Of a DNA stretch of 64,000 nt, positions 2,655 through 59,377 are shown piece after piece. Position 1 is the stretch's first letter, and each line of letters starts with the position of its first letter. The position numbers and the translations under genes are program-made. This DNA comes from Bacillota bacterium (lineage in GTDB: Bacteria; Bacillota; UBA994; UBA5500), in contig JAEZJZ010000020.1 of the NCBI GenBank assembly GCA_023436245.1, forward strand, positions 29,433-93,432. The letters run 5' to 3'. The notes under the pieces were generated by a model. It was given only the letters and a program-made list of their open reading frames with translations, did not search any database and was not told where the DNA came from.

Positions 2655-2695
2655 GGCGGGTGGAACGCTGGGGCCTGTCCCCGCGTTCCATCCGC
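2655..2695. terminator. Stem-loop, repeat family B (GGAACGCTGGGGCctgtCCCCGCGTTCC), downstream of the TPP enzyme gene
   Basis: Near-perfect inverted repeat directly after the TGA at 2648. It belongs to the GGGGAC-N-GTCCCC hairpin family also seen at 14275, 15737 and 42988. Confidence 0.5.
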
Positions 2696-2799: not shown

Positions 2800-3231
2800 A
2801 TGTCAGCAGCCTTGACGCGAAATGCCACCGACGTGAGAAAGAACTTCCGACAGTTCTTTGACCAGGTTCTGCATGAAAAACCGCAAGCCATTGTTCGGCA
2901 TGGCGATGACATGGTGCTCGCGTTGTCGCTGAAACACCTCGAGGCCATGCTTGACTCAATCGATTTCACGATGGAAGTTGAACAGGAACCTGACGGTAGC
3001 GTGTCCGGCTCTGTGTTGGAATTGCCCGTCTGTGAAAATGCCTCGTCCACTGAAGAACTGGAACTGGCCTTGGCCAGGGGCTTGGTCGACTACGCCGATG
3101 TCTACCTTTCCGAGTTTGAGCGCTGTTTCCACTCGCCGAACCTGCGCAAGCAGTTCGCCCATGTGATGAAAGTGTACCTGCAGCCCACCGTTGAGGCTGT
3201 CGCCAGCCTGATCAATGGGCAGCCTTGCTGA
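2800..3231 (+). CDS. Phd/YefM-like antitoxin-domain protein with a C-terminal extension
   Basis: N-terminus TDVRKNFRQFFDQVLHEKPQAIVRHGDDMVLALSLKHLEAML matches the Phd/YefM fold signature. Strong RBS. Overlaps the downstream gene by 17 nt. Confidence 0.55.
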   Translation: MSAALTRNATDVRKNFRQFFDQVLHEKPQAIVRHGDDMVLALSLKHLEAMLDSIDFTMEVEQEPDGSVSGSVLELPVCENASSTEELELALARGLVDYADVYLSEFERCFHSPNLRKQFAHVMKVYLQPTVEAVASLINGQPC

Positions 3232-3433
3232 CCTCCGGCGTTTCGCGCGCAAACATGGAGTATTACTGCGGAACACGGATCACGAGTTCTATCTAATCAC
3301 CCATCCACTGACCGGCGAAGAACTGATCTTGAAGGTCTCTCATGGGCAGGGCGAGATCCCACCTAACCTCTGGAAGCGAATCCTGCGACAGCAGCTGAAG
3401 CTCAGTCAGGAGGAGTTCAACCGCTACATTTAG
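3215..3433 (+). CDS. HicA-like (YcfA family) small toxin-like protein
   Basis: 72 aa: LADLRRFARKHGVLLRNTDHEFYLITHPLTGEELILKVSHGQGEIPPNLWKRILRQQLKLSQEEF matches the HicA pattern (helix, then G-HH, then beta strands, then ...L+Q.GL). Translationally coupled to the upstream gene. Confidence 0.45.
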   Translation: MGSLADLRRFARKHGVLLRNTDHEFYLITHPLTGEELILKVSHGQGEIPPNLWKRILRQQLKLSQEEFNRYI

Positions 3434-3508: not shown

Positions 3509-4309
3509 CTAGAGGATCCACTTCAGAGTGCGTAGCACCTCATAGTAGTCATTGCTGGTGAACCGCACCGTGTTGTCGCCAGTCTTCTGCACGCCCGGGA
3601 AATGCGAGACTTTCTCCGCGTACGCGTGCTCTTTGAAGAGAATCTCCACCTCAAAGGACTCAGCCAGTTGGATTTTGGCTGCTCCGAGGTCCTGGCGGAC
3701 GGCCGCTTCTGCTGCCTGTCGAATGCGCTTGACCACTGTGTCAGGCGAGTAGTTTCTGGTTAGATTGCCGCGCCCGCTCTTGGTGGGCACAGTCAACAAG
3801 CTGGGATGCAGTTGCTTCCCGTCACCACACAGCATTTCGTCGCCTGAGAGCAGCACAGTCGGCACCCCTTCCAACGCGCAAGCCCAGCTGTAGATGGTGA
3901 ACTCGGAGGCATAGAGGCCGTTGATCTTGATCCAGAGCGGCCTGCCGGTCAGCGTGTGTGCCAGAGGGTTCCCGGGCCTGCCAGCCGCAGAATGGTAGCC
4001 GATGAACATGGCGCAATCAAAGCTGTTGTCCACTCCCTCCACCATCAGATAGGGATGGCCTGACCAGTTGCGCAGCAGAACCACATTTTCCGGCATCTGC
4101 GCCGGGTCGATGTTCAGGCCGGAACCATGCGCGTCTTTGACATAGATTTCGGTCGCTCCGCCCGCAAAAGCCCCTTCACAGGCAGCCAACACTTCTCGCG
4201 TCATCTGTTTGGCGTGTGGTGCGGCCATTGCCTCGGAAGAAGTGTGCGTTTCCTTCCAATCCGTAGTGGTAGTAATGCCTTCGATGTCTGCACTGATGAA
4301 CACTCTCAT
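3509..4309 (-). CDS. dppA: D-aminopeptidase DppA (peptidase M55)
   Basis: MRVFISADIEGITT...EIYVKDAHGSGLN is the typical M55 N-terminus. RBS AAGGGGG. Confidence 0.75.
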   Translation of the reverse strand: MRVFISADIEGITTTTDWKETHTSSEAMAAPHAKQMTREVLAACEGAFAGGATEIYVKDAHGSGLNIDPAQMPENVVLLRNWSGHPYLMVEGVDNSFDCAMFIGYHSAAGRPGNPLAHTLTGRPLWIKINGLYASEFTIYSWACALEGVPTVLLSGDEMLCGDGKQLHPSLLTVPTKSGRGNLTRNYSPDTVVKRIRQAAEAAVRQDLGAAKIQLAESFEVEILFKEHAYAEKVSHFPGVQKTGDNTVRFTSNDYYEVLRTLKWIL

Positions 4310-11522: not shown

Positions 11523-12365
11523 CTATGATAGGGTCAGATACATCTCATGTTGCGAAATACGCTCCTCCACAAATTCCCGTTTGCGCAAGAAGCCTTCCAG
11601 CGAAGCGTTGTTGGGGGTGCTGGCGGAAACCTTGTTCAGGCCCAGGCGCGTAATTGCATGGGATAGCAGGGCTGAGGCAATGCCTTGATGTCTATGGTCG
11701 GGGTTCACCCAGAGTTGAAATAGCTTTCCTCTACGGCTGATGCAAAGATAGGCCAGCGGGGCCGCCTCACCGGCGACTCCATAGAATTGGACATCGTCAT
11801 TCTCTATGTATTCGAGGGTGTTTTGCCAGTTGATGTGTGTTTCTGGGTTCGCCGCCGCCCGCACCTGCCCAGCAGAGAATGGCCGAATTTCGATGCCCCA
11901 TTCTTCCCCGGCACCCAGTTCCTCGGGTCGATTATGAACGTAATACCTGAGGTCATACACCTTTTGGTAGCCCAGCCTCTTGTAGAAGGCGATGGCCGGC
12001 TCGTTGCCAGCAATTACCTCCAGAAAGAGCTGTTTGCATCGATTCTCTACGGCCTCGCGGCGATGCAGTTGATAGAGCGCGTGCCCGACTTGCCGTCTTC
12101 TGTACTCTGGGATAACGCACAAGCCACCGCACCGCATGGTGCGGATGCCCTCGTAATGGCGGATGCCCCCAAGGATCATTCCCACAGGCAAAGAGCCATC
12201 ATAGGCAATGAAGGAGTGCTCCAGCTGATTCCATGCTGGCTGGAAGAACCTCTCCGCGAACACTTGATAAGGAACATCCAGCTTCACTGTGTAGTCGGCA
12301 AAGCCAGACCGAAACGCTCGGTACAGGTCAGGCAGATTGTTGCACGAGCATCTCTCATAACGCAT
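11523..12365 (-). CDS. GNAT-family N-acetyltransferase (tandem GNAT folds)
   Basis: Acetyl-CoA binding motifs RRRQVGHALY and HRHQGIASALLSHA. ATG 12365 follows GGAGGGAGG. Confidence 0.7.
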   Translation of the reverse strand: MRYERCSCNNLPDLYRAFRSGFADYTVKLDVPYQVFAERFFQPAWNQLEHSFIAYDGSLPVGMILGGIRHYEGIRTMRCGGLCVIPEYRRRQVGHALYQLHRREAVENRCKQLFLEVIAGNEPAIAFYKRLGYQKVYDLRYYVHNRPEELGAGEEWGIEIRPFSAGQVRAAANPETHINWQNTLEYIENDDVQFYGVAGEAAPLAYLCISRRGKLFQLWVNPDHRHQGIASALLSHAITRLGLNKVSASTPNNASLEGFLRKREFVEERISQHEMYLTLS

Positions 12366-14242: not shown

Positions 14243-14274
14243 CAATTGGCGCGCGGAAGCTCGGTCAGGAAAAT

Positions 14275-14301
14275 GGAACGAGGGGACTGGCCCCGCGTTC
14301 C
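14275..14301. terminator. Hairpin GGAACGAGGGGACtggCCCCGCGTTCC (repeat family B)
   Basis: Perfect 12-bp arms, 33 bp downstream of the stop at 14242. Confidence 0.55.
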
Positions 14302-14501
14302 ATTCTGATCGAGAAGATCAAGGAGACCCGTGACCAGCGTTTCATTCCGTTCCTGGAGGTCTGGAAAGCCGTCGCCTTCCGCAAGATCCAGGCGGCCCTG
14401 GAACTTGCCATCGGGGCTCTGAGCAACTGAGGCGGATGAAGCACTTGGGCGGCAAAATGGGTTTTCTGAGCAGCTCGGGCGTTCCAAGGGATGTCTCACC
14501 T

Positions 14502-15071
14502 TCACCCCCAGTGTGGCTCGCCCGACCCCGAGATGAAGTCAGCCACTTGGCATAGCCACACTATATGATCAGAACCCGCTCCCCAGTAATCCTTGGCCAC
14601 TACAAAGGGTGCCCCGAACTTGCGCAGCCAACGCTGCTGCGCGCGGCGGAAGCCGCTGTCCAGGCAGAATTGCGTTACGCCGGAGCGGGTGAGATGAATC
14701 ATCATCGCCCCAATCAGGGCCGACCCGATTCCCTGGTCTTGATGCCCGGGTAGGACATAAAGACTGCCCAGTTCCACCACCGAATGCAGTTGGCTACCGG
14801 CGCAGCGGCGGATATCTTCGTTGCACTGCCCAACGGAGACCGTGCCCACCACTGTTCCCTGCAACTTGGCAACCAGAAAGTGAGTTTCTGCAGCAGGTGC
14901 GAGGGAGGCTGCAAGCATCCTCTCCTTCTGCTCTACCTCGGCTTGAATGTCGGCCTGCAGATGGCCCAGTCCTTCCTTGTCAAAGGCGTCGGGAATGGCA
15001 GCAGCAAAGACGTGCGCGGCTGACGGCAGATCTGCAGCAGCAAGGTCTATGATCGATAGACCGGCAATCAC
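14502..15071 (-). CDS. GNAT-family N-acetyltransferase
   Basis: QDQGIGSALIGAMM acetyl-CoA motif. GTG 15071 sits 9 nt after AGGAGG. Confidence 0.6.
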   Translation of the reverse strand: MIAGLSIIDLAAADLPSAAHVFAAAIPDAFDKEGLGHLQADIQAEVEQKERMLAASLAPAAETHFLVAKLQGTVVGTVSVGQCNEDIRRCAGSQLHSVVELGSLYVLPGHQDQGIGSALIGAMMIHLTRSGVTQFCLDSGFRRAQQRWLRKFGAPFVVAKDYWGAGSDHIVWLCQVADFISGSGEPHWG

Positions 15072-15147
15072 GGTGACCAACCTCCTTATGGGAAATTCTG
15101 GATGAAGTTCGGAGCAATCGCGGAGTGAGGAGCACGAGGGCAATCCG

Positions 15148-15250
15148 TCGGGTCGCATGCATGCGACCCCTACGGGCATACGGGCGGCTCAACGGCAACA
15201 CTGACGGGATTGGGCGGCTGCGCGACCCCTACGGGCATACGGGCGGCTCC
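15148..15250. repeat. Repeat family D: GTCGCATGCATGCGACCCCTACGGGCATACGGGCGGCTC with a tandem second unit
   Basis: The unit GCGACCCCTACGGGCATACGGGCGGCTC occurs twice here. Related elements at 21437-21605 and 57208-57385. Confidence 0.65.
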
Positions 15251-15256
15251 GCAGTT

Positions 15257-15631
15257 CTACGCCCGACCTAGCTGCGTGATGGCCCGGCACTTCAGGCAGA
15301 AGGTACACTCCACATTGTGCACTCGGTCCTGCGTCAGGCCGAAGTTGCGCAGTGCTTCCAGCACGGCGGCCAGCGCAGCGCCCGTCTTGCTAAGTGAGTA
15401 CTCCGCCCGAGGCGGAACCTCGGGGAAGACGGTTCTGCTCACCAGCCCGTCCTGCTCCATCTCCCGCAGTTGTTCAGTCAGCACCTTGGAGCTGACTTGG
15501 GGTATCTCCCGCGCCAGCTCGCCATAGCGAACTGGTCCCTGCGACAGTGCCTTGATGATCAGAATCTTCCACTTGCCGCTGATCATCGCCAAAGTCGCTT
15601 CGATGGGGCACATCGGTTTCTGTTCATCCAT
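15257..15631 (-). CDS. HxlR-family transcriptional regulator
   Basis: CPIEATLAMISGKWKILIIKALSQGPVRYGELAREIPQVSSKVLTEQLREMEQDGLV. Confidence 0.8.
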   Translation of the reverse strand: MDEQKPMCPIEATLAMISGKWKILIIKALSQGPVRYGELAREIPQVSSKVLTEQLREMEQDGLVSRTVFPEVPPRAEYSLSKTGAALAAVLEALRNFGLTQDRVHNVECTFCLKCRAITQLGRA

Positions 15632-15736
15632 CAAATCCCCTCCCACTGGAGCCGACAATTACCTCTTCGTAAGCATGCTTACAAAAAAGTGCCTACTTGC
15701 AGAACTATTGTCAAGCAGATATTATCCTCTTGGAAT

Positions 15737-15763
15737 GGAACGTGGGGACTGTCCCCTCGTTCC
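15737..15763. promoter_or_regulatory. Palindrome GGAACGTGGGGACtGTCCCCTCGTTCC (family B) immediately upstream of the racemase RBS, in the hxlR-racemase divergent region
   Basis: Perfect 13-bp arms. Ends 9 nt before GGAGGTG and the ATG at 15786. Position suggests an operator rather than a terminator. Confidence 0.4.
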
Positions 15764-15785
15764 ATCCTCACGGAGGTGCTGATTC

Positions 15786-19726: not shown

Positions 19727-21373
19727 TTGCGAAAGAGGCACTGTTGGCTAGCCCTATCGTTGGCTCTGCTGTTGACAGCAACCCTGTCCGGTTGCAGCAA
19801 GTCAGAAGCCGGGCTTACCCCCACGGCAATGCGACAAGACTTCGAGTTCATAGCCCAGAAGATCGAGGATGTACATCCGATTGGGGCAACAGGCCTGACG
19901 AGCGGGCTGCATCAGGCAATCTATGACGGTCGGACACGCTTGGCGATAGAGCAGCCGACATTCGCTGACTACTTCTGGGCGGTATCCAACCTGTTGAGCG
20001 CCCTGGACGACCGGCAAAGCCATCTGATCTGGCCAATCGCGGACAAGGCCCTGGATTTGCCGCTCTATTGGTGCGCAGATGGCCTATATGTCATCAGTGC
20101 GGCCGACAAGCTGGAACCCGGGGACCGGGTACTGTCCATGGGCGGCCAGAGTACTGCGAACTATGAGCCACTGAGCATGGTAGCCCCCTACCTGTCTGCA
20201 GCAGATGGGCATGAGATCGGGAGAGTGTTGACCAGCCAACATGTGCTGCAAGGCTTGAGCTTGGTCGGAGTGGACGGCCTGGTCAATGTGGAGATCCAAC
20301 GGGGAGATCAGAAGCAGAGTCTCCGACTGACCTTTGCCAAAGAGTATCAGCCACCGCAGGCTGATTTGACGCAAGAGGACTCTAGCTGGAGTCTGGAGCC
20401 AGAGAACTCGCTCGGGATTTTCTGCCTGAATGAGCTGGGCGCCGGGGCTTCACTTCAGCAACAACTGCGTGAATTCTTCGCGGCAGTCCAGGTTCAGAAC
20501 CTGCAAAGCGTGGTGCTGGATTTGCGCCATACGCGAGGCAGCGACTGGCAGACAGCGCAGGAGTTGCTGCGCTATCTGGATGTGGAAAGCTACGAAGACT
20601 ACGGCGAAAGCGTGCGATCTCCCGGACAGACGGAGATGCAGACCAGGCAGCCCCAACGGATTAGCAACGACGCGTACCGTGATATTGCGTTTCATGGTCA
20701 GACCTATGTGCTAGTAGCTGGCTCTACCTCTGAAAGCGCCTGCCGTCTGGCGGCTCTGTTGTGCCAGAATCGGCTGGCGCAGTTGGTCGGACAGAGCGTC
20801 GGGAGAGCCGCTGTCCGCTACGGCAAGGCAGAGCAGTTCACCCTACCGGCGTCGAAGCTACGGTTCACCATCTCCAGCACCGAGTTCCTGCCCCCGGGAG
20901 GAGGCAGCGCTGGCACAGTGTTCAGTTCTGGGGGGCCGGCATTTGTCTCTTTGGCCAATATCCTGGCCGGGGCGGATGTTGAACTGCGGATGGCGAGGGT
21001 GATGGCTGAATGGGGCGAACGATTATATCAAGCGCCAGAAGCTACCCCACTTGTTTCACTGGAGGGCAAGACGTTGGAGCAGGCGGCACGCGAGTGGCTG
21101 GAAGCCTGTTTCTTGCCCTTGAAGTCGGAAACAGTATCACCCAGGCTACGGTTGGCGGACTTCTCCATTCAGTGGGCAAAACAGGAAGACCCCATGCATG
21201 GTCATGATAACGTCGTCTGGGTTCAGTATTCGCTGAAGCCGGCCTATCCCGAGTTTTACTTAGCAGCTGGCAACGGAATCTGGGACGGTGCCTGGCTCAA
21301 GAATGAGGAACGCTTCCTGGTTTTCAAGTCGGACGGCGAGCTCTATCGCGTGGATGCAGTTACTGGGTTGTGA
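19727..21373 (+). CDS. S41-family peptidase (C-terminal processing/tail-specific protease-like) lipoprotein
   Basis: Lipobox LLTATLSGC. LDLRHTRGS resembles the S41 LDLRxNxGG motif. TTG 19727 follows GGTGAGGTG (a GTG at 19712 is an alternative). Confidence 0.55.
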   Translation: MRKRHCWLALSLALLLTATLSGCSKSEAGLTPTAMRQDFEFIAQKIEDVHPIGATGLTSGLHQAIYDGRTRLAIEQPTFADYFWAVSNLLSALDDRQSHLIWPIADKALDLPLYWCADGLYVISAADKLEPGDRVLSMGGQSTANYEPLSMVAPYLSAADGHEIGRVLTSQHVLQGLSLVGVDGLVNVEIQRGDQKQSLRLTFAKEYQPPQADLTQEDSSWSLEPENSLGIFCLNELGAGASLQQQLREFFAAVQVQNLQSVVLDLRHTRGSDWQTAQELLRYLDVESYEDYGESVRSPGQTEMQTRQPQRISNDAYRDIAFHGQTYVLVAGSTSESACRLAALLCQNRLAQLVGQSVGRAAVRYGKAEQFTLPASKLRFTISSTEFLPPGGGSAGTVFSSGGPAFVSLANILAGADVELRMARVMAEWGERLYQAPEATPLVSLEGKTLEQAAREWLEACFLPLKSETVSPRLRLADFSIQWAKQEDPMHGHDNVVWVQYSLKPAYPEFYLAAGNGIWDGAWLKNEERFLVFKSDGELYRVDAVTGL

Positions 21374-21436
21374 CTCTGGGCTTCGCATGGCAGCACCAAT
21401 TGCGCAGGGGCTGTCGCAAAAAGCCTGCCGGTATGC

Positions 21437-21605
21437 GGGCGCCATTCATGGCGCCCCTACGGGCGACGCATACCCCGGTCACTCCGTAGGGGTCGCATGC
21501 ATGCGACCCGCTGGTGCATCGCAGCCTATGGATAGCATGTGTTCACCCAAACGCAAGGGAGACGACAACCGTCGTCTCCCTTGCGCTATTCATGGGGCGC
21601 TATTG
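21437..21605. repeat. Repeat family D, long form (about 170 bp) with terminal hairpin GCAAGGGAGACGACAACCGTCGTCTCCCTTGC
   Basis: Module order shared with 57208-57385: CGCCATtCATGGCGCCCCTACGGG...GCATACCCC...CCGTAGGGGTCGCATGCATGCGACCC...GCAAGGGAGACGACAACCGTCGTCTCCCTTGCGCT. Confidence 0.7.
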
Positions 21606-21641
21606 CGACATCCCCTCGTCATGGAGATGCCACTTTCCCTG

Positions 21642-22901
21642 CTAAATCAGCCCTGAGCGTCTCAGCAGACGCTGCACGATTGCCGCTGTCTCCGCCTTGG
21701 TGACGCAATCCTTGGGGGCAATCGTCTGACCCGGTCTGCCGCCGATGATACCAGTCTTCAAGCAGGCTGCCACCACATTTCTGGCCCAAGCCCCCACCTT
21801 CTGACCATCCGCATAGGTAGCGAGAATGGTCTCGGTCTCTCCTGTTGCTAGATCATGCGGCAACCCAGTCAGCTTCATGACGGCGACCACGATGGACATC
21901 GCCTCTTCCCTGGTCAACAGCCGCTCCGGTCCAAACAGGTTCCCAGGGAACCCTCCCATGATGCCGCGCTCGTATGCCGTGAGCATGTAGCCAAAGTACT
22001 CTTCATCCGCCAGTACATCGAGGAACGGGCTTGCCCCGCTCGCGGGGGCCAGTCCAAGCGCCTTGACGATCGTGGCCGCAAACTCGGCGCGGGTGATCGG
22101 GCGATTGGCACCGAAGCTATCGGCACTGTCTCCGGTCATCACCAGACGCGAACCCATGTCGCTGACTGCGCTCTTGGCCCAGTGCCGAGCCACGTCCGCA
22201 AACTCCACCTGGTTCCAGATCAGGCTGTAGGTGCTGTTGGTCAGGCTGTTCACTTCCGCATAGTATTTGCCATCGATTATCGTCACCCTAGTTGGAACGT
22301 GCAGGAGCGTCCCGTCTGACTGCAATACTGCTGCCGTCGTCACTTTGCTGGGATCCACGCCCTGAGGAATCGCGATGCTCCGTTCCACATAAGCGTTGAA
22401 CCGACTGACCGAGACAGTCTGATCCCCATAGGTGCAGATGATGGAGAAATCCACCGGCGGCACTATCAACAGGTAATTGCCCTGCTTAGCGGCGTCCTCC
22501 ACCAACGCAACTCTCTCCGCAGGCGATTGCGCAATTTGCACCTGCACGCTGATATCCTGCAGACTGACGTTCTCACCCAGTTGAGTTCCAATTTCATCGA
22601 TGTTGATCTGCACAGCTGGCAAAGTGTAGGTTGCCCGGTCTGTGACCACCTGCAGTGTCGCTGCTCTGGATTCCATGTTCTTGACCGTTGCACCGGTCAA
22701 CTGACCCACAACAACATCAGATCCGCCGGTGACAGGCAGGGTAACCATCGCGTTATCTCCCACAGCCTGCAGCTTGGCTCCCACCTTGGCATCATCCACT
22801 GTCACCGTGGTGACGGATAAGCCACCCACTTGCATCGTCAGAGATCTGTCTGAAACAGCAGCTCGGCACAACATGCGCATCCAGAGCTGTGCCGAAACCA
22901 T
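21642..22901 (-). CDS. SLH-domain cell-surface protein (three C-terminal SLH repeats); N-terminus apparently truncated, no signal peptide
   Basis: C-terminus carries FGANRPITRAEFAATIVKAL..., LTREEAMSIVVAVMKL..., CVTKAETAAIVQRLL (SLH). No candidate start (22901, or ATG 22835) is followed by a signal peptide. The upstream minus-strand sequence instead encodes, on the other strand, a DUF1848 C-terminal remnant. Confidence 0.5.
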   Translation of the reverse strand: MVSAQLWMRMLCRAAVSDRSLTMQVGGLSVTTVTVDDAKVGAKLQAVGDNAMVTLPVTGGSDVVVGQLTGATVKNMESRAATLQVVTDRATYTLPAVQINIDEIGTQLGENVSLQDISVQVQIAQSPAERVALVEDAAKQGNYLLIVPPVDFSIICTYGDQTVSVSRFNAYVERSIAIPQGVDPSKVTTAAVLQSDGTLLHVPTRVTIIDGKYYAEVNSLTNSTYSLIWNQVEFADVARHWAKSAVSDMGSRLVMTGDSADSFGANRPITRAEFAATIVKALGLAPASGASPFLDVLADEEYFGYMLTAYERGIMGGFPGNLFGPERLLTREEAMSIVVAVMKLTGLPHDLATGETETILATYADGQKVGAWARNVVAACLKTGIIGGRPGQTIAPKDCVTKAETAAIVQRLLRRSGLI

Positions 22902-29892: not shown

Positions 29893-30022
29893 GCAGCATG
29901 CGAGACTGTTCATTTTGCCCCTCGTAGCGGCTCGGCATGCCGAGCCGTATCCCGCAGCATGCTGCGGGGTCTACGGTAAGAAGAAAGCCACTTTCTGAAC
30001 GCTCTCGCATACCGAGCCTACG
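29893..30022. repeat. Repeat family A copy (GTAGCGGCTCGGCATGCCGAGCC...TCCCGCAGCATGCTGCGGGG...)
   Basis: Shares the GGCTCGGCATGCCGAGCC palindrome, the GCAGCATGCTGCGGGG palindrome and the flanking AAAGCCACTTTCTGAA with 750-950. Sits between the M20 and M24 peptidase genes. Confidence 0.7.
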
Positions 30023-44889: not shown

Positions 44890-45771
44890 CTAGGAGAGTT
44901 CACCGTCGACCACGCGCTTGGCCATGTGGTCATCAATGATGCGGTGTTTGTTGTGGGCGCCATAGATCAGGCAATGCGTGCAAAGCTTGTTGATCATCCT
45001 GGCCGAGCCGGAGGAGTAGCGGTAGATCTCGTCCAGCGCGCCCTCGGTGAAGATGTCACGTTCAGCTCCAGCATAAGCCATGTGGCGCTCAATGTAGGCA
45101 GCAACTTCTGCGCGATCATAGTGGTGTAGCTTGCACTGCAGGTCGATGCGCTGGCGAATGGCCGCGTAGGCCTGTAGCACCAGGCGTTCCCAGAGTTCGC
45201 TTTGCCCGACCAGGATGAGAGCCATTGGACTCTCGGCATCCATGCGGAAGTTCAGCAGGAACCTCACTTCTTCGAACATCTCCCGATCCAGGAGATGGGC
45301 CTCGTCGATGACCACGACCGGCTGCAGGTGATGAATCCCTTTCATCAGCTCTATCTCGCGGTGTAGCTGACGTTTGGCATCGCCTCGGTAGAATTTGGCC
45401 TCGCAACCTAACTGCTCCAGCAGCCCCTTGTAGAAGTGGCGGGGCGTGAGCTTGGAGTCGGCTAGATAGAGCAGTTTGAAGCGAGACTGGTCCAAGGTTT
45501 CGGAGAAGCAGCGGATGGTGGTTGTCTTGCCGGTACCGGGGTCACCACTGACCACCGCAAACCATTGCCGCTCGGCTGCATAGGTGAGCCGCCCCAGCGT
45601 CTCCTCAAGCTGTACTGATCGGTAGAGTTTCTGGGTTGGAATGTCCCGCGAGAATGGAGAATGCGACAGGCCATAGAATGACTCAAACATGACTATCCTC
45701 CCGCACCAACCGGTAAGAGACGGCTGGAGCCACCCGTTCCTGTCTCTCTTGGCTCTTGGCGCCGGCGGCAA
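44890..45771 (-). CDS. istB: IS21-family helper ATPase IstB
   Basis: VSGDPGTGKTT (Walker A), VVIDEAHLLD (Walker B), AAA+ fold. Confidence 0.85.
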   Translation of the reverse strand: MPPAPRAKRDRNGWLQPSLTGWCGRIVMFESFYGLSHSPFSRDIPTQKLYRSVQLEETLGRLTYAAERQWFAVVSGDPGTGKTTTIRCFSETLDQSRFKLLYLADSKLTPRHFYKGLLEQLGCEAKFYRGDAKRQLHREIELMKGIHHLQPVVVIDEAHLLDREMFEEVRFLLNFRMDAESPMALILVGQSELWERLVLQAYAAIRQRIDLQCKLHHYDRAEVAAYIERHMAYAGAERDIFTEGALDEIYRYSSGSARMINKLCTHCLIYGAHNKHRIIDDHMAKRVVDGELS

Positions 45772-47023
45772 TGAGCAGGCGTGAGGAATCTGCTATGCGC
45801 GTGGTCAGGTGATCCGGCAGAGGTGGGCGATCGCCTACTTTAGCACCGATGACCAGTTCCCTAACCCGCCAGGGTTTGTGGCCAGAGTACTCAATCGTCA
45901 GTTCGGTGGTATCTTGCGGATCGTAGACTACGTCAACCTTGCAGCCGAGGAAACTGACGCCGACCTCATACTTACGGCCGAGGAAGCTGATGCAGCCGGC
46001 CTTATCCACTTTACGTTGCTCGCAATGCAGAAAGGCGTCTGCCAGTAGTTCCGGCTCCACAAACCGGAGGGGCTTGCTGTCGCTCCGGTAGGCTTCTTCC
46101 GGGCTTTGGCCTAGGGCAGAGTGAGGTTTGTGCTGGTAGCATTCCGAGAGCCAGACCTGAAACAGTTCGTTCAACTGGTCTAGGGTCTTGGGCCTCTGCA
46201 AAGATGCCTCTTTCAGGAACGAGTCAACGACTCTGTTGAATCGCTCCACCTTGCCTTTTCCCTCGGGGGAATACGGTTTGGCGTACAGCAAGCGAATGCC
46301 TAGCTTAGAGCAGGTTCGCTGCATCCAGGTGGTGCGGTATTGCTTGCCGTTGTCGAAGTAGACGGCTTCCGGTACTCCGTACTTCTGAATCGCCCGGCGG
46401 AAGCAGTCTTCTACCACCGCCTGATCCATAACAGGATAGAACTCTCCGTGCAGCACCAATCGAGTGGCATCGTCCAGGAAGGTGACCAGGTAGACCTGCT
46501 TGCTGGTGCCGTTAGGACCGATTGGCAGGTATGGTCCGTACTTCAGATCAGACTGCCAAAGACGATTGCGATGGGGTTGTTGCCACCGCCGCGTAGCCAC
46601 TCCCGTTTCGGCATACATTCGCATCTGGCGGGTGCTGTAACCTCTCTCGGTCAGTTTCTCTTGTAGGGTGCTGCGCCGGATCTGACCTTTCTCAATCAGG
46701 CCTTCCCACTCCATGATCTGTATTAGCTGGCTGACGCTCCGGCTGGGCACTTCCCGCCGTAGCATAATGGCCTGTTCCAAGACCTCTTTCGGAATGGCGC
46801 TGGACGCCTGCTGGCTCTTGGCTCTCGGTTGCAGACCAATGAAGCCCTCTTGGCGGTACCTGGTCAGGTAGCGCCTGAGGGTACGGTCCGAGATGCCTGT
46901 TTCTTGACAGATGCGGGTTCGTAACTCCCTAGCTTTGGCCGAATCGAGTTCCCCGGACAGGAGTGGAGCCAACAACTGCACTCGCTTGGTAGCAATCTCT
47001 TCCGCTTTTTGCTTGTCTTTCAT
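45683..47023 (-). CDS. istA: IS21-family transposase IstA (HTH + DDE)
   Basis: N-terminal HTH ...ICQETGISDRTLRRYLTRYRQEG. DDE region DLKYGPYLP...VYLVTFLDDATR...DNGKQY. Start chosen at ATG 47023 after GGGAGAG. The ORF is open to the GTG at 47149. Confidence 0.8.
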   Translation of the reverse strand: MKDKQKAEEIATKRVQLLAPLLSGELDSAKARELRTRICQETGISDRTLRRYLTRYRQEGFIGLQPRAKSQQASSAIPKEVLEQAIMLRREVPSRSVSQLIQIMEWEGLIEKGQIRRSTLQEKLTERGYSTRQMRMYAETGVATRRWQQPHRNRLWQSDLKYGPYLPIGPNGTSKQVYLVTFLDDATRLVLHGEFYPVMDQAVVEDCFRRAIQKYGVPEAVYFDNGKQYRTTWMQRTCSKLGIRLLYAKPYSPEGKGKVERFNRVVDSFLKEASLQRPKTLDQLNELFQVWLSECYQHKPHSALGQSPEEAYRSDSKPLRFVEPELLADAFLHCEQRKVDKAGCISFLGRKYEVGVSFLGCKVDVVYDPQDTTELTIEYSGHKPWRVRELVIGAKVGDRPPLPDHLTTRIADSSRLLIAAGAKSQERQERVAPAVSYRLVREDSHV

Positions 47024-47058
47024 GCTCATCTCTCCCTTGCTTGACCTCGTTTTCGAGT

Positions 47059-47601
47059 CTAGCAAGGGGAGTGTTCGGGCAGCCATGCAGAACGGGTATG
47101 TACCCAAAGATTTGCGTTCACGATCGGTCGGACAATCTGCTTCAGCCACCCGCTGGCCGATCCGACCAACTGTTTAAGCCTCTGGTGTGCCGACTGTGCA
47201 GGGCTGGCCGGGCTCTCCACAGGGCCTGTCTCATACCGAACGGCGATAGAGGCCAGGCATCCGAGCCAATAGGTCACGTTCTCCGTGACCCAACGCTTCC
47301 AACGGTTGACGGTGGCCTCATCTGCTGGGGCTGTGTTTTCCTCCCGGCTAGACAAGATCTGTTCCACGCACTCCGCTCTGTAGCGTTTGTATGGCACTAA
47401 GAAGTCCGGCAGCTCATGATGGATTCGTCCGCAGCTCTGACACCGCAGCCGGCGGATGTACGCTGCATTCTTCTCGCCTTCATCGTCGATGAACCCACGA
47501 GATCGACTACCAATAACCTTCATTTCGCCGTCGCAGCAAGGACACGGGATCTTCTCTGCACACCTAATAAAACACGCCGGGAGACTTCTCAACCAGCTCA
47601 T
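47059..47601 (-). CDS. Zn-ribbon protein (CPCC...C..C) immediately upstream of istA, DUF6431-like IS21 accessory ORF
   Basis: CPCCDGEMKVIGSRSRGF...RRLRCQSCGRIHHELPDFLVPYKRY. The position, co-oriented directly upstream of istA, recurs in IS21-family elements. Confidence 0.5.
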   Translation of the reverse strand: MSWLRSLPACFIRCAEKIPCPCCDGEMKVIGSRSRGFIDDEGEKNAAYIRRLRCQSCGRIHHELPDFLVPYKRYRAECVEQILSSREENTAPADEATVNRWKRWVTENVTYWLGCLASIAVRYETGPVESPASPAQSAHQRLKQLVGSASGWLKQIVRPIVNANLWVHTRSAWLPEHSPC

Positions 47602-50198: not shown

Positions 50199-50403
50199 CG
50201 TTTTCTCCTCCTTTATTTAGGCACTAATAGGAGCAGGCTACTTCCTACCTTCACCTCCACTTATTTTTGTATGCGTAATAAGCTTATCATCAGACGCTTG
50301 GGGTTTCTACAACTATCGGCAGATAATTGTGCAAAAAAATGCAGGCAGATGAAAAAGCCACCCATTGATAGATCTCATTCTATCAATAGATGGCACTATA
50401 CTT

Positions 50404-50750
50404 GGTGGAGGCGGGGGGATTCGAACCCACCGTCCGAAGGCCAGCCAGCCAGAGCTTCTCCGAGCGCAGTCCATGCTTTGAATTTCGCTCGGTGACGCCC
50501 CCGTGGACAGGGTCGTTACTTCGCTAGCCCGTTAATTTCCCGACCGATACCAGGCGCTCTCGGTCAGTAGACTACTGTTCATGACGCCCGCATCTGAACC
50601 CCAGTAGACACAGTTTCAGGCAGACGGCGGCCTTAGGCCGCGATTGCTAAATTGTTGTTAGCTATTGTTGTTTTCCCTGTTTTACGGGTACCAGGATCCC
50701 CGGCTCGCTACTCCAACCCACAGAACCCCCGTCGAAACCATGTCGCCCCC
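50404..50750 (-). ncRNA. ssrA: tmRNA (ssrA)
   Basis: Minus strand 5'-GGGGGCGACAUGGUUUCGACGGGGG ... GGAUUCGAACCCCCCGCCUCCACCA-3'. 7-bp acceptor pairing between the ends. Internal tag ORF ...GCU AAC AAC AAU UUA GCA AUC GCG GCC UAA encodes (A)NNNLAIAA*. Confidence 0.9.
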
Positions 50751-56558: not shown

Positions 56559-57113
56559 TTACATGCCGAGCTCGGTGCTGATCCCTTGCATGGCGCGCAG
56601 TCCTAGGTTGATGAACTGCTCGAGAGTGAGGCCGAGCTCGCTGCAGCTCTGCAACTGCTCGCGACTGACTCCCCGGGCGAAGCTCTTCTCGCGCACACGG
56701 TTCATGATGAAGGGCACATCGATTGACCCCAACTTGCGGTCGGGATGAATCAGGGCAGCAGCCACGATCAGCCCGGAAAGTGGATCTGCAGCATAGAGCG
56801 CCTTATCCATCAGACTGATTCTCGGCAGTCCATGGGCTTCGTTATGCACCTTGATCGCGTAGACCAGATCCGGGTCAAAACCGGCGTCCTCCAGCATGGC
56901 AGCGGCCAAAATGCTATGATTGGTTGGATCGCTAGCTGTCTGGTCGTAATCCAGATCATGCAACAGCCCAGCCAACCCCCACCGCTCCACACTCTCGCCA
57001 AAGCGAGCCGCCAGGGAGCGCATGATCGCCTCCACTGCCAGCATGTGCTTGATCAGGTTCTTGTTCTTCACGTGCTTCTGTACCATCTGCAGCGCCTGTT
57101 CGCGCGTGACCAT
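56559..57113 (-). CDS. HD/HDIG-domain phosphohydrolase
   Basis: ...HMLAVEAIMRSLA...LAGLLHDLD... Confidence 0.65.
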   Translation of the reverse strand: MVTREQALQMVQKHVKNKNLIKHMLAVEAIMRSLAARFGESVERWGLAGLLHDLDYDQTASDPTNHSILAAAMLEDAGFDPDLVYAIKVHNEAHGLPRISLMDKALYAADPLSGLIVAAALIHPDRKLGSIDVPFIMNRVREKSFARGVSREQLQSCSELGLTLEQFINLGLRAMQGISTELGM

Positions 57114-57207
57114 CTATGAATCTTCCTTTCTGCCCGAATATGCGGGATATATGTTTTGTCCTCAGTTTAGCAGACTACCGCCGAGAACGCCAACAAAAGG
57201 GGCCAAG

Positions 57208-57385
57208 CGGGCGCCATGCATGGCGCCCCTACGAGAGCGTGCGCATACCCCTCTCATCCGTAGGGGGCGCATGCATGCGCCCCTGCGCCCCGTGCTTGCA
57301 CCGCATCGCATCCCATGGACAACATTTGTGCGCCAAGCGCAAGAGAGACGACAACTGTCGTCTCTCTTGCGCTAATCATGTGTCG
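57208..57385. repeat. Repeat family D, long form, with terminal hairpin GCAAGAGAGACGACAACTGTCGTCTCTCTTGC
   Basis: Colinear with 21437-21605. The terminal hairpin differs by paired substitutions that preserve base pairing. Sits between the hppA stop and the HD-gene start. Confidence 0.7.
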
Positions 57386-57412
57386 CGACTGCGACAGTTC
57401 CTTTGATGTAAT

Positions 57413-59377
<1,965 letters not shown>

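Follow-up and report, generated by a model that had tools for sequence, protein, structure and literature searches.

Probable GTAG-tagged REPs in small BIME-like mosaics between genes of an uncultured member of the Bacillota

REP/RAYT systems are best known from Proteobacteria. In Firmicutes, the pneumococcal BOX elements are modular, intergenic and strongly folded, and their modules are present or absent in individual copies, as in the repeat family described here (family D); however, BOX modules are not known to contain GTAG-tagged palindromes or to be linked to a Y1 transposase. The GTAG super-family was described by Di Nocera, De Gregorio and Rocco (2013; PMC3733652) as short G+C-rich stem-loops with an unpaired GTAG foot, and the arrangement in which different units carry their tags inward was named the TT heterodimer. 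These GTAG repeats were reported from Proteobacteria, Cyanobacteria, Chloroflexi and the PVC group, with Firmicutes unmentioned, whereas the host of family D is an uncultured Bacillota. The REPs of E. coli are cut at GTAG by a monomeric HUH-Y1 enzyme, the RAYT TnpA-REP (YafM) (PMC6006769).

The window analysed here is a stretch of 64,000 nucleotides, and the same-genome sequence beyond it comprises 6.5 kb before and 9.4 kb after (~16 kb of flanks). The same strain is represented by ENA assembly ERZ28596075 (SAMN17062689) and by Logan run SRR13347280. Family D probably consists of GTAG-tagged REPs assembled into small BIME-like mosaics, and its units would have arisen and spread through a RAYT that acts on single-stranded DNA in hairpin form. 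The anatomy of the units, their extragenic location, their presence or absence between relatives, the maintenance of their palindromes and the presence of REPs of this family next to a Gemmiger gene of RAYT-like sequence are direct observations. The repeats are probably an ordinary selfish or structural DNA repeat of the REP/BIME type in an unusual host, and not a new RNA gene.

Copies A (21433-21607, plus strand) and B (57205-57396, plus strand) are homologous over their full length of ~175-190 nt, with 77% identity in an alignment of 198 nt, and each of them is retrieved by a profile of the pair (nhmmer E 1e-65 and 4e-70). Both contain the same parts in the same order, namely REP1, a spacer, REP2, a second spacer, a long hairpin and a tail. 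REP1 is the palindrome GGGCGCCATnCATGGCGCCC followed by CTAC, the spacer between the REPs includes GCATACCCC in both copies, and REP2 is GTAG followed by the palindrome GGGnCGCATGCATGCGnCCC. After a further 42-52 nt, the long hairpin, (A)GCGCAAGrGAGACGAC-AACy-GTCGTCTCyCTTGCGC(T), forms a perfect stem of 15-18 bp, and the tail terminates in TGCGACA. In copy A, REP1 (21437-21460, minus strand) consists of GGGCGCCATTCATGGCGCCC and CTAC, which reads GTAG-GGGCGCCATGAATGGCGCCC on the minus strand; the spacer of the tail-tail dimer occupies 21461-21485 (plus strand); REP2 (21486-21509, plus strand), which is the core of the family, consists of GTAG and GGGTCGCATGCATGCGACCC, with a 10-bp stem and no loop; and the long hairpin (21552-21585, unstranded) is CGCAAGGGAGACGAC-AACC-GTCGTCTCCCTTGCG, with a 15-bp stem. 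In copy B, the corresponding parts are REP1 at 57209-57232 (minus strand; GGGCGCCATGCATGGCGCCC and CTAC), REP2 at 57260-57283 (plus strand; GTAG and GGGGCGCATGCATGCGCCCC) and the long hairpin at 57336-57373 (unstranded; AGCGCAAGAGAGACGACA-AC-TGTCGTCTCTCTTGCGCT), which has an 18-bp stem.

REP1 and REP2 are related but not identical, with one indel per arm, and in both copies they are inverted with the GTAG tags pointing inward, forming a tail-tail heterodimer. Across the spacer of copy A, CCCCTACGG (21454-21462) pairs with CCGTAGGGG (21484-21492), so that the tags and their neighbouring bases are involved. Perfect stems of 9-10 bp with a loop of 0-2 nt are located at 21437-21456, 21490-21509, 57209-57228, 57264-57283 and 15150-15169. 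The family-D palindrome is thus ~20 nt long, G+C-rich and perfect, with an ATGCAT centre and an unpaired GTAG at one foot, and either a 5' GTAG or a 3' CTAC is present on all five such palindromes at A, B and locus C. With its perfect palindrome of 20 nt and its unpaired GTAG foot, this core has the anatomy that defines REPs, the elements on which RAYTs act.

The long hairpin of A and B carries no GTAG, and only ATAG or TTAG is found beside it, on the minus strand. Together with its spacer it makes up the 3' half of the two copies and occurs only twice in ~80 kb of genome; a profile search with the hairpin and its flanks gave no further match in the window, its flanks, the relatives or the Gemmiger loci. 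As the hairpin is untagged, present in two copies and not found elsewhere, we infer its membership in the REP system from its position.

The layout of two inverted REPs followed by a hairpin of 15-18 bp resembles a BIME mosaic. Family D has the stem-loop-forming short palindrome (20-40 nt in REPs), the unpaired GT[AG]G tetranucleotide foot and the extragenic location of REPs, and the BIME arrangement of at least two nearby REPs in alternating orientation is present in A, in B and at a fourth locus outside the window (L081, 17327-17385), with GCATACCCC as the linker motif common to A and B. The inward CTAC…GTAG arrangement, with REP1 followed by REP2, is found at these same three loci. Like the GTAG REPs of PMC3733652, the units are extragenic and form TT heterodimers, with singletons and fragments intermixed, and the dimers of that study have 20-100-nt spacers with complementary ends, a feature that recurs in A and B. 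In contrast to those REPs, the palindromes here are perfect over 9-10 bp, with a loop of 0-2 nt and a centre of ATGCAT or GCATGC. The E. coli BIMEs, composed of Y and Z REPs, are likewise mosaics at gene 3' ends, in which the orientation of the REP types alternates and the linkers contain conserved motifs. However, the palindromes of the E. coli REPs are bulged and imperfect, whereas those of A, B and C are perfect, and, unlike in E. coli BIMEs, the third unit here is a perfect hairpin of 15-18 bp without a proper GTAG. The REPINs of Pseudomonas fluorescens (Bertels and Rainey 2011; PMC3116915) are inverted REP doublets, the presumed replicating unit, accompanied by a single-copy RAYT, and A and B are doublets as well. 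The arms of a REPIN are nearly identical and pair into one long hairpin, whereas the arms here are different palindromes, and pairing across the spacer involves only the CTACGG/CCGTAG tags. The assignment to REPINs was rejected because REP1 and REP2 fold as separate hairpins in both the MFE and the consensus structures.

The pattern of tagged palindromes in the window exceeds chance. The sequence CCCCTACGG occurs 5 times against 0.26 expected from shuffled sequence, and the hairpin core is found at 2 loci (4 matches on both strands) against 0.02 expected. In 11 perfect palindromes the stem is 9 bp or longer and the loop no longer than 2 nt, and 9 of them are tagged with GTAG or CTAC; the corresponding numbers per window in first-order Markov simulations are 1.0 and 0, and the background frequency of the tag at arbitrary positions is 0.03 (~3%). 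All but one of the 11 short-loop palindromes are centred on ATGCAT or GCATGC. Of the two untagged ones, one has ATAG and the other is the long hairpin of copy B. The remaining palindromes of the window with stems of at least 9 bp have loops of 3-6 nt.

The initial annotation had attributed the same ordered modules to three loci. This holds for A and B, in which all four modules are present in the same order, but not for locus C (15148-15250), which contains the core only, in reversed orientation. Here, GGGTCGCATGCATGCGACCCCTACGG is the reverse complement of the core of A over 27 of 27 nt, and neither a terminal hairpin nor a GGCGCCATnCATGGCGCC unit was found at this locus. Copy C is a single unit of the REP2 type (15150-15173, minus strand; GGGTCGCATGCATGCGACCC and CTAC), which lies 3' of the HxlR gene at 15257-15658 (minus strand). 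A partial second unit at 15222-15249 (minus strand) repeats the 28 nt of 15163-15190 (GCGACCCCTACGGGCATACGGGCGGCTC) exactly and in direct orientation, and comprises one half of a palindrome together with its tag and tail.

The fourth locus (L081, 17231-17385) lies between convergent genes ~3 kb outside the window, in the 6.5 kb before it. Its first part is a terminator hairpin of 19 bp and the T-run of this hairpin, GCAAGAGACC…GGTCTCTTGC-CCTTCTTTT, followed by GGCGCCATGCATGGCGCC-TTTTAC and, 11 nt further on, by GTAG-GGTCGCACGCATGCGAC. The segment 17327-17385 is a degenerate tail-tail doublet, and its order relative to the adjoining hairpin is opposite. Since the REP doublet recurs at this locus, whereas the long hairpin and its flanks are confined to A and B, the doublet is the recurring unit. 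Family D amounts to 4 loci with about 7 units in ~80 kb of genome.

Every family-D locus lies between called genes, as had been stated for the three loci in the window. Copy A is located between the convergent genes of an S41 peptidase (19727-21373, plus strand) and an SLH protein (21642-22901, minus strand), copy B between a membrane pyrophosphatase gene (57413-59377, minus strand) and an HD-domain gene (56559-57113, minus strand), and copy C between the genes of an HxlR-type regulator and a GNAT acetyltransferase. Read on the minus strand, A and B begin 40-57 nt past a stop codon and end 10-14 nt ahead of a T-run, and for this reason they are probably transcribed as the 3' ends of the upstream genes. 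A conserved small ORF within A and B was ruled out, because indels shift the frame and the only shared words are those encoded by the palindromes; six-frame translations of A and B used as protein queries gave no match at E ≤ 1.

The pyrophosphatase gene beside copy B places the host in an uncultured lineage of Bacillota and allowed a comparison with relatives. Its nearest named relatives are MAGs labelled "Bacillota bacterium" with 88% identity, and its nearest named genera, such as Tepidanaerobacter, have about 72% identity. Five relatives (L073, L076, L077, L074/L075 and L078), whose pyrophosphatases are 97-87% identical, were compared, and in all five a canonical intrinsic terminator directly follows the pyrophosphatase gene; in L073 it is GAGCGAGTGCCG-CAGGT-CGGCACTCGC-TTTTTTTT. 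The spacer between the pyrophosphatase and HD genes is 121 nt in L073, which has the 97% identical pyrophosphatase, versus 299 nt in the window. In the latter, the first ~16 nt past the stop codon can still be aligned, as can the T-run and the sequence downstream of it (CCCCTTTTGTTGGCGTTCTC…TAAACT…). The kept T-run (57185-57204, minus strand; CCCCTTTTGTTGGCGTTCTC), at the start of the upstream region of the HD gene, is homologous to the T8 terminator tract of the relatives and lies outside the repeat. Relative to these genomes, the window has lost the terminator stem-loop (~36 nt) and gained ~215 nt including copy B. The presence of the terminator and the absence of B at the orthologous site in the relatives indicate that B is derived and lineage-specific. 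The event is a replacement and not a clean insertion, and by itself it does not reveal a transposition mechanism. No GTAG-tagged palindromes were found in ~93 kb of the relatives' DNA. The search for an empty site of copy A through homologues of the S41 peptidase returned only the same strain, so that the comparison is confined to B.

The possibility that the long hairpin is a native terminator, beside which a REP pair was inserted, was rejected for A and B, since the hairpin and both of its flanks are homologous between the two copies and unrelated to the ancestral terminator. A consensus scan for intrinsic terminators gave no site at A and none relevant at B, and neither strand of either copy has a T-run after the long hairpin. 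At B, the sole T-run is ancestral and lies 10 nt past REP1.

The same REP is found in other genomes. A scan for GTAGGGGnCGCATGCATGCGnCCC, covering one genome per species, returned at least 63 loci, and the sources among the matches listed are two Gemmiger MAGs with many copies, a Subdoligranulum variabile MAG contig (two copies among these matches), and Gemmatimonadota and Bryobacteraceae MAGs. The Gemmiger REP and the window REP share an identical 24 nt (GTAGGGGnCGCATGCATGCGnCCC), and in both the tag is preceded by a (T/C)ATGC motif. In Gemmiger, the REPs form long head-to-tail arrays with a spacing of about 75-80 nt, interspersed with sister REPs, for example GTAGGGGCGGCATACATGCCGCCC and GTAGGGCGGGGTCTTGACCCCGCC, whereas the window contains isolated dimers; the long-hairpin module is not present in Gemmiger. 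The Gemmatimonadota REP is double-footed (GTAG…CTAC), a form that is known for one subclass of TnpA-REP (PMC6006769).

A RAYT-like gene was located in Gemmiger by tblastn, for which an approximate E. coli RAYT query served only as a lead. It is an ORF at L050 2857-3321 that encodes a Y1 transposase of 154 aa, with gyrB on one side and gyrA on the other. The protein contains the HUH motif PDHVHFIL and WQRSYYDHVIRN, passes the Pfam Y1_Tnp cut-off of 23 with 25.2 bits, and matches the NCBIfam model REP_Tyr_transpos (REP-associated tyrosine transposase) with E 3.8e-19 and 69 bits, which is under the curated cut-off of 80. Directly downstream of the gene lie two near-identical REPs in inverted orientation to each other, GTAGGGGCCGCATGTATGCGGCCC and its partner, which differ from the scanned pattern at one central base. 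Upstream of gyrB there is an array of 8 REPs, two of which are exact copies of the pattern. The whole arrangement is REPtron-like. At a Gemmatimonadota locus (L023), a second RAYT-like fragment adjoins GTAG palindromes. In the window and its 16 kb of flanks, neither a RAYT nor an IS200 TnpA was detected by tblastn or in the Pfam lists; the tblastn queries were approximate RAYT and IS200 TnpA sequences and, as a third, the Gemmiger protein. A metagenome-wide scan for the hairpin core GAGACGACAACNGTCGTCTC gave 9 matches, all in unrelated coding or other sequence, and scans of viral contigs for REP1 and REP2 gave none.

As RNA, A and B fold with −94 to −98 kcal mol−1 and z of about −6 on either strand (−98.4 kcal mol−1 and z −6.3 for A; −94.7 kcal mol−1 and z −6.0 for B), and a stable fold on both strands is expected of palindromic DNA. 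Across the four stems, A and B differ at two pairs, both of them compensatory (from A to B, a T-A pair of REP2 becomes G-C and a G-C pair of the long hairpin becomes A-T), and no difference breaks a stem, whereas the spacers have diverged freely, with indels. The initial annotation was therefore right that hairpin substitutions occur in both arms and keep the pairing. The two free positions of GTAGGGGnCGCATGCATGCGnCCC are Watson-Crick complementary in 104 of the 106 matches listed (C-G 95, T-A 6, G-C 3), which indicates that the palindrome is maintained through co-variation across lineages. The compensatory changes argue for maintenance of the palindromes, which would be equally expected if a RAYT recognises single-stranded DNA hairpins, and hairpin-templated correction could be an alternative source of perfect palindromes. 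The selection on structure proposed earlier is thus supported as far as the palindromes are maintained, but it is not specific to RNA, and compensatory changes alone are no proof of selection on RNA structure.

If A and B instead encoded a structured non-coding RNA, be it an sRNA or a 3'-UTR element that acts in cis, selection would act at the RNA level and the GTAG palindromes would be incidental. The very stable folds, the two compensatory pairs without a single break, and the location of both copies in the same orientation shortly past a minus-strand stop codon, where they are probably transcribed, agree with such an RNA. However, the two strands fold equally well, as DNA palindromes should, the palindromes bear the tag of a DNA-level element, and copy B is absent at the orthologous locus in all relatives examined. 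The Rfam scan that had been suggested as a check gave no match for the element at gathering thresholds or at E ≤ 10, where nothing exceeded 19 bits, and tmRNA alone reached the gathering score in the whole window; a consensus scan for sigma-70-like promoters found no promoter-like site at A or B. We consider a structured RNA very unlikely. Of the designation "small RNA/REP family" in the initial annotation, the REP part is borne out by the tag, the palindromes, the dimers, the extragenic location, the RAYT-like neighbour in Gemmiger and the absence in a relative, whereas the small-RNA part is not upheld, with two full copies in ~80 kb and none found elsewhere in addition to the negative Rfam and promoter scans. 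A miniature non-autonomous transposon, that is, a DDE-type MITE or a palindrome-associated IS200/IS605 derivative whose two ends would be the REP pair and the long hairpin, would explain a discrete unit of ~175-190 nt that has hairpins close to each end and that a close relative does not have at its orthologous site. The DDE-type MITE was rejected because the borders, GCGGGCGCC... and ...TGCGACA, are not inverted repeats and the flanks are not duplicated; inspection of the sequence at the borders of A and B revealed neither TIR nor TSD. IS200/IS605 elements also lack TIRs and TSDs, but their ends have the same orientation, whereas the REP pair is inverted and the structures at the two ends are unrelated in sequence. 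In addition, C and the L081 locus have REP units but not the hairpin module, no IS200-type tnpA was found by tblastn in the window and flanks, and the copies are only 77% identical, all of which makes a miniature transposon a poor candidate with little probability.

The limited identity of the copies, and the fact that only two full-length ones were found, could also result from a segmental duplication of an intergenic terminator region that is now decayed, immobile and functionless, and the long hairpin is similar to other gene-end hairpins in the genome. Decay, however, is seen in the spacers only, while all four palindromes remain perfect through compensatory changes; the flanks of A and B are unrelated; and REP units recur by themselves at both C and the L081 locus and are multi-copy in other genera. 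Such a duplication is highly improbable.

Under the preferred reading, GTAG-tagged REPs dispersed by a RAYT, a REP-associated HUH/tyrosine transposase (RAYT, or TnpA-REP) would generate and spread the units on single-stranded DNA. The enzyme would bind the hairpin and cut at GTAG, and would leave neither terminal inverted repeats nor target duplications. Such an action on single-stranded DNA hairpins would account for the tag, the perfect stems, the variety of dimers, singletons and fragments, and the absence of TIRs and TSDs. By analogy with known systems, the units of this genome may depend on a RAYT, and they may have effects at the RNA level, such as on termination or mRNA stability. Units located just 3' of genes would be transcribed into the 3' ends, where very stable hairpins might block 3' exonucleases or read-through. 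At the pyrophosphatase gene, the mosaic has taken the physical place of the ancestral intrinsic-terminator hairpin. It is conceivable, although rather doubtful, that one REP/RAYT specificity (GTAG and GGGnCGCATGCATGCGnCCC) moved horizontally among phyla that are far apart, namely two unrelated lineages of Bacillota, Gemmatimonadota and Acidobacteriota, and that in the present lineage mosaics are assuming the role of terminators, as this one mosaic precisely replaced a conserved terminator stem-loop while the T-run was kept; the REP with its long hairpin would then be a functional, exapted 3'-end module.

REPs as a kind are already known, and the general picture of them is unchanged. New here are the Bacillota host, the occurrence of the same REP in MAGs of Gemmatimonadota and Acidobacteriota and, densely arrayed by a RAYT-like gene, in the gut genus Gemmiger, and the mosaic that stands in place of a conserved terminator. 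The known host range is widened by the GTAG-tagged REP dimers in an uncultured Bacillota and by the dense Gemmiger arrays with their RAYT-like gene, and the Gemmiger REP and RAYT-like gene provide a concrete REP/RAYT pair. The replacement at the pyrophosphatase gene is a natural experiment on whether a REP mosaic can substitute for an intrinsic terminator.

In practical terms, these palindromes fragment short-read assemblies and produce spurious ORFs. ORFs of this kind, arising from the palindromes, are located at 21288-21656 and 57116-57406. A second, unrelated family of GTAG palindromes is present at 733-917 and 29893-30010 of the window and, as a third copy in the 9.4 kb after it, at L083 3979-4095; its palindromes in the window are GTAG-CGGCTCGGCATGCCGAGCCG, CCCGCAGCATGCTGCGGG-GTCTAC and GTAG-CACCACAGCATGCTGTGGTG. 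The short-read Logan contigs of the same strain stop at palindromes, one of them (L079) at 21511, at REP2 of copy A, and another at ~864, within a palindrome of the second family; these breaks may hint at extra copies in the genome.

As observed outside the window, the family-D REP, a GTAG-tagged palindrome, occurs in Gemmatimonadota MAGs (L005, L006, L009, L011 and L049) as a double-footed palindrome, GTAG…CTAC, bordered by short half-unit tandem runs, for example, CTACACGCGGCCC repeated 4–6 times. Such an arrangement suggests that partial copying took place repeatedly at the tag. In a Gemmiger MAG (L050, CALXHR010000009.1), a gene of 154 aa for a RAYT-like Y1 transposase (REP-associated tyrosine transposase; 2857–3321) lies between gyrB and gyrA, where an inverted REP pair follows the gene and eight head-to-tail REPs are arrayed before gyrB. 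GTAG REPs were rarely found in head-to-tail arrays in the 2013 survey of Di Nocera et al. (PMC3733652).

In the relative with 88% pyrophosphatase identity (L074), a different long palindromic repeat, GGGAGACAGGGGGACGTACAAACTGTCTCCGCGCGGAGACAGTTTGTACGTCCCCCTGTCTCCC, is located downstream of the pyrophosphatase terminator (12025–12110) and fills the same pyrophosphatase-HD intergenic space that holds a family-D copy in the window. Hairpin repeats seem to land recurrently in this spacer.

The same genome carries a second family of GTAG/CTAC-tagged perfect palindromes, which is GCATGC-centred and unrelated to family D. Its copies are found at 733–917 and 29893–30010 of the window and at 3979–4095 of the downstream flank (L083), approximately 5.3 kb past the window end, with the units GTAG-CGGCTCGGCATGCCGAGCCG, CCCGCAGCATGCTGCGGG-GTCTAC and GTAG-CACCACAGCATGCTGTGGTG. 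The palindromes are clustered, with 2–5 units per cluster, and one cluster is located between divergently transcribed genes.

A family of gene-end hairpins is repeated within the window (2656–2691, 14273–14305, 15733–15765 and 42994) and in the relative with 87% pyrophosphatase identity (L078; 8142 and 12031); the family has a conserved apex, GGGGAC(T/A)G(G/T)CCCC, above the stem ATGGAACG…CGTTCCAT. No obvious T-run was found at these copies. A same-strain Logan short-read contig terminates at approximately 14310, at one of these hairpins.

Long spurious ORFs run through the family-D repeats on the plus strand (21288–21656, 57022–57375 and 57116–57406), and the first ~30 codons of the minus-strand ORF 14502–15179 are a spurious start through the repeat; the translations include …GVACMRP… and …KRKGDDNRRLPCA…. 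Gene callers could take such ORFs for proteins, or set the GNAT gene start too far out.

Three genes on the minus strand (44890–47601) form a transposon-like trio: one is of the DUF6431 family, one encodes an rve integrase whose C-terminal domain is of the Mu-transposase type, and one encodes an AAA_22/TniB-like ATPase. The surrounding GC content of 0.52–0.56 is the lowest in the window. The tmRNA (50403–50750) and SmpB lie a few kb away, and the end of ENA scaffold_240, which belongs to the same genome, was calculated from the coordinates to fall at approximately 44651, right beside the trio.
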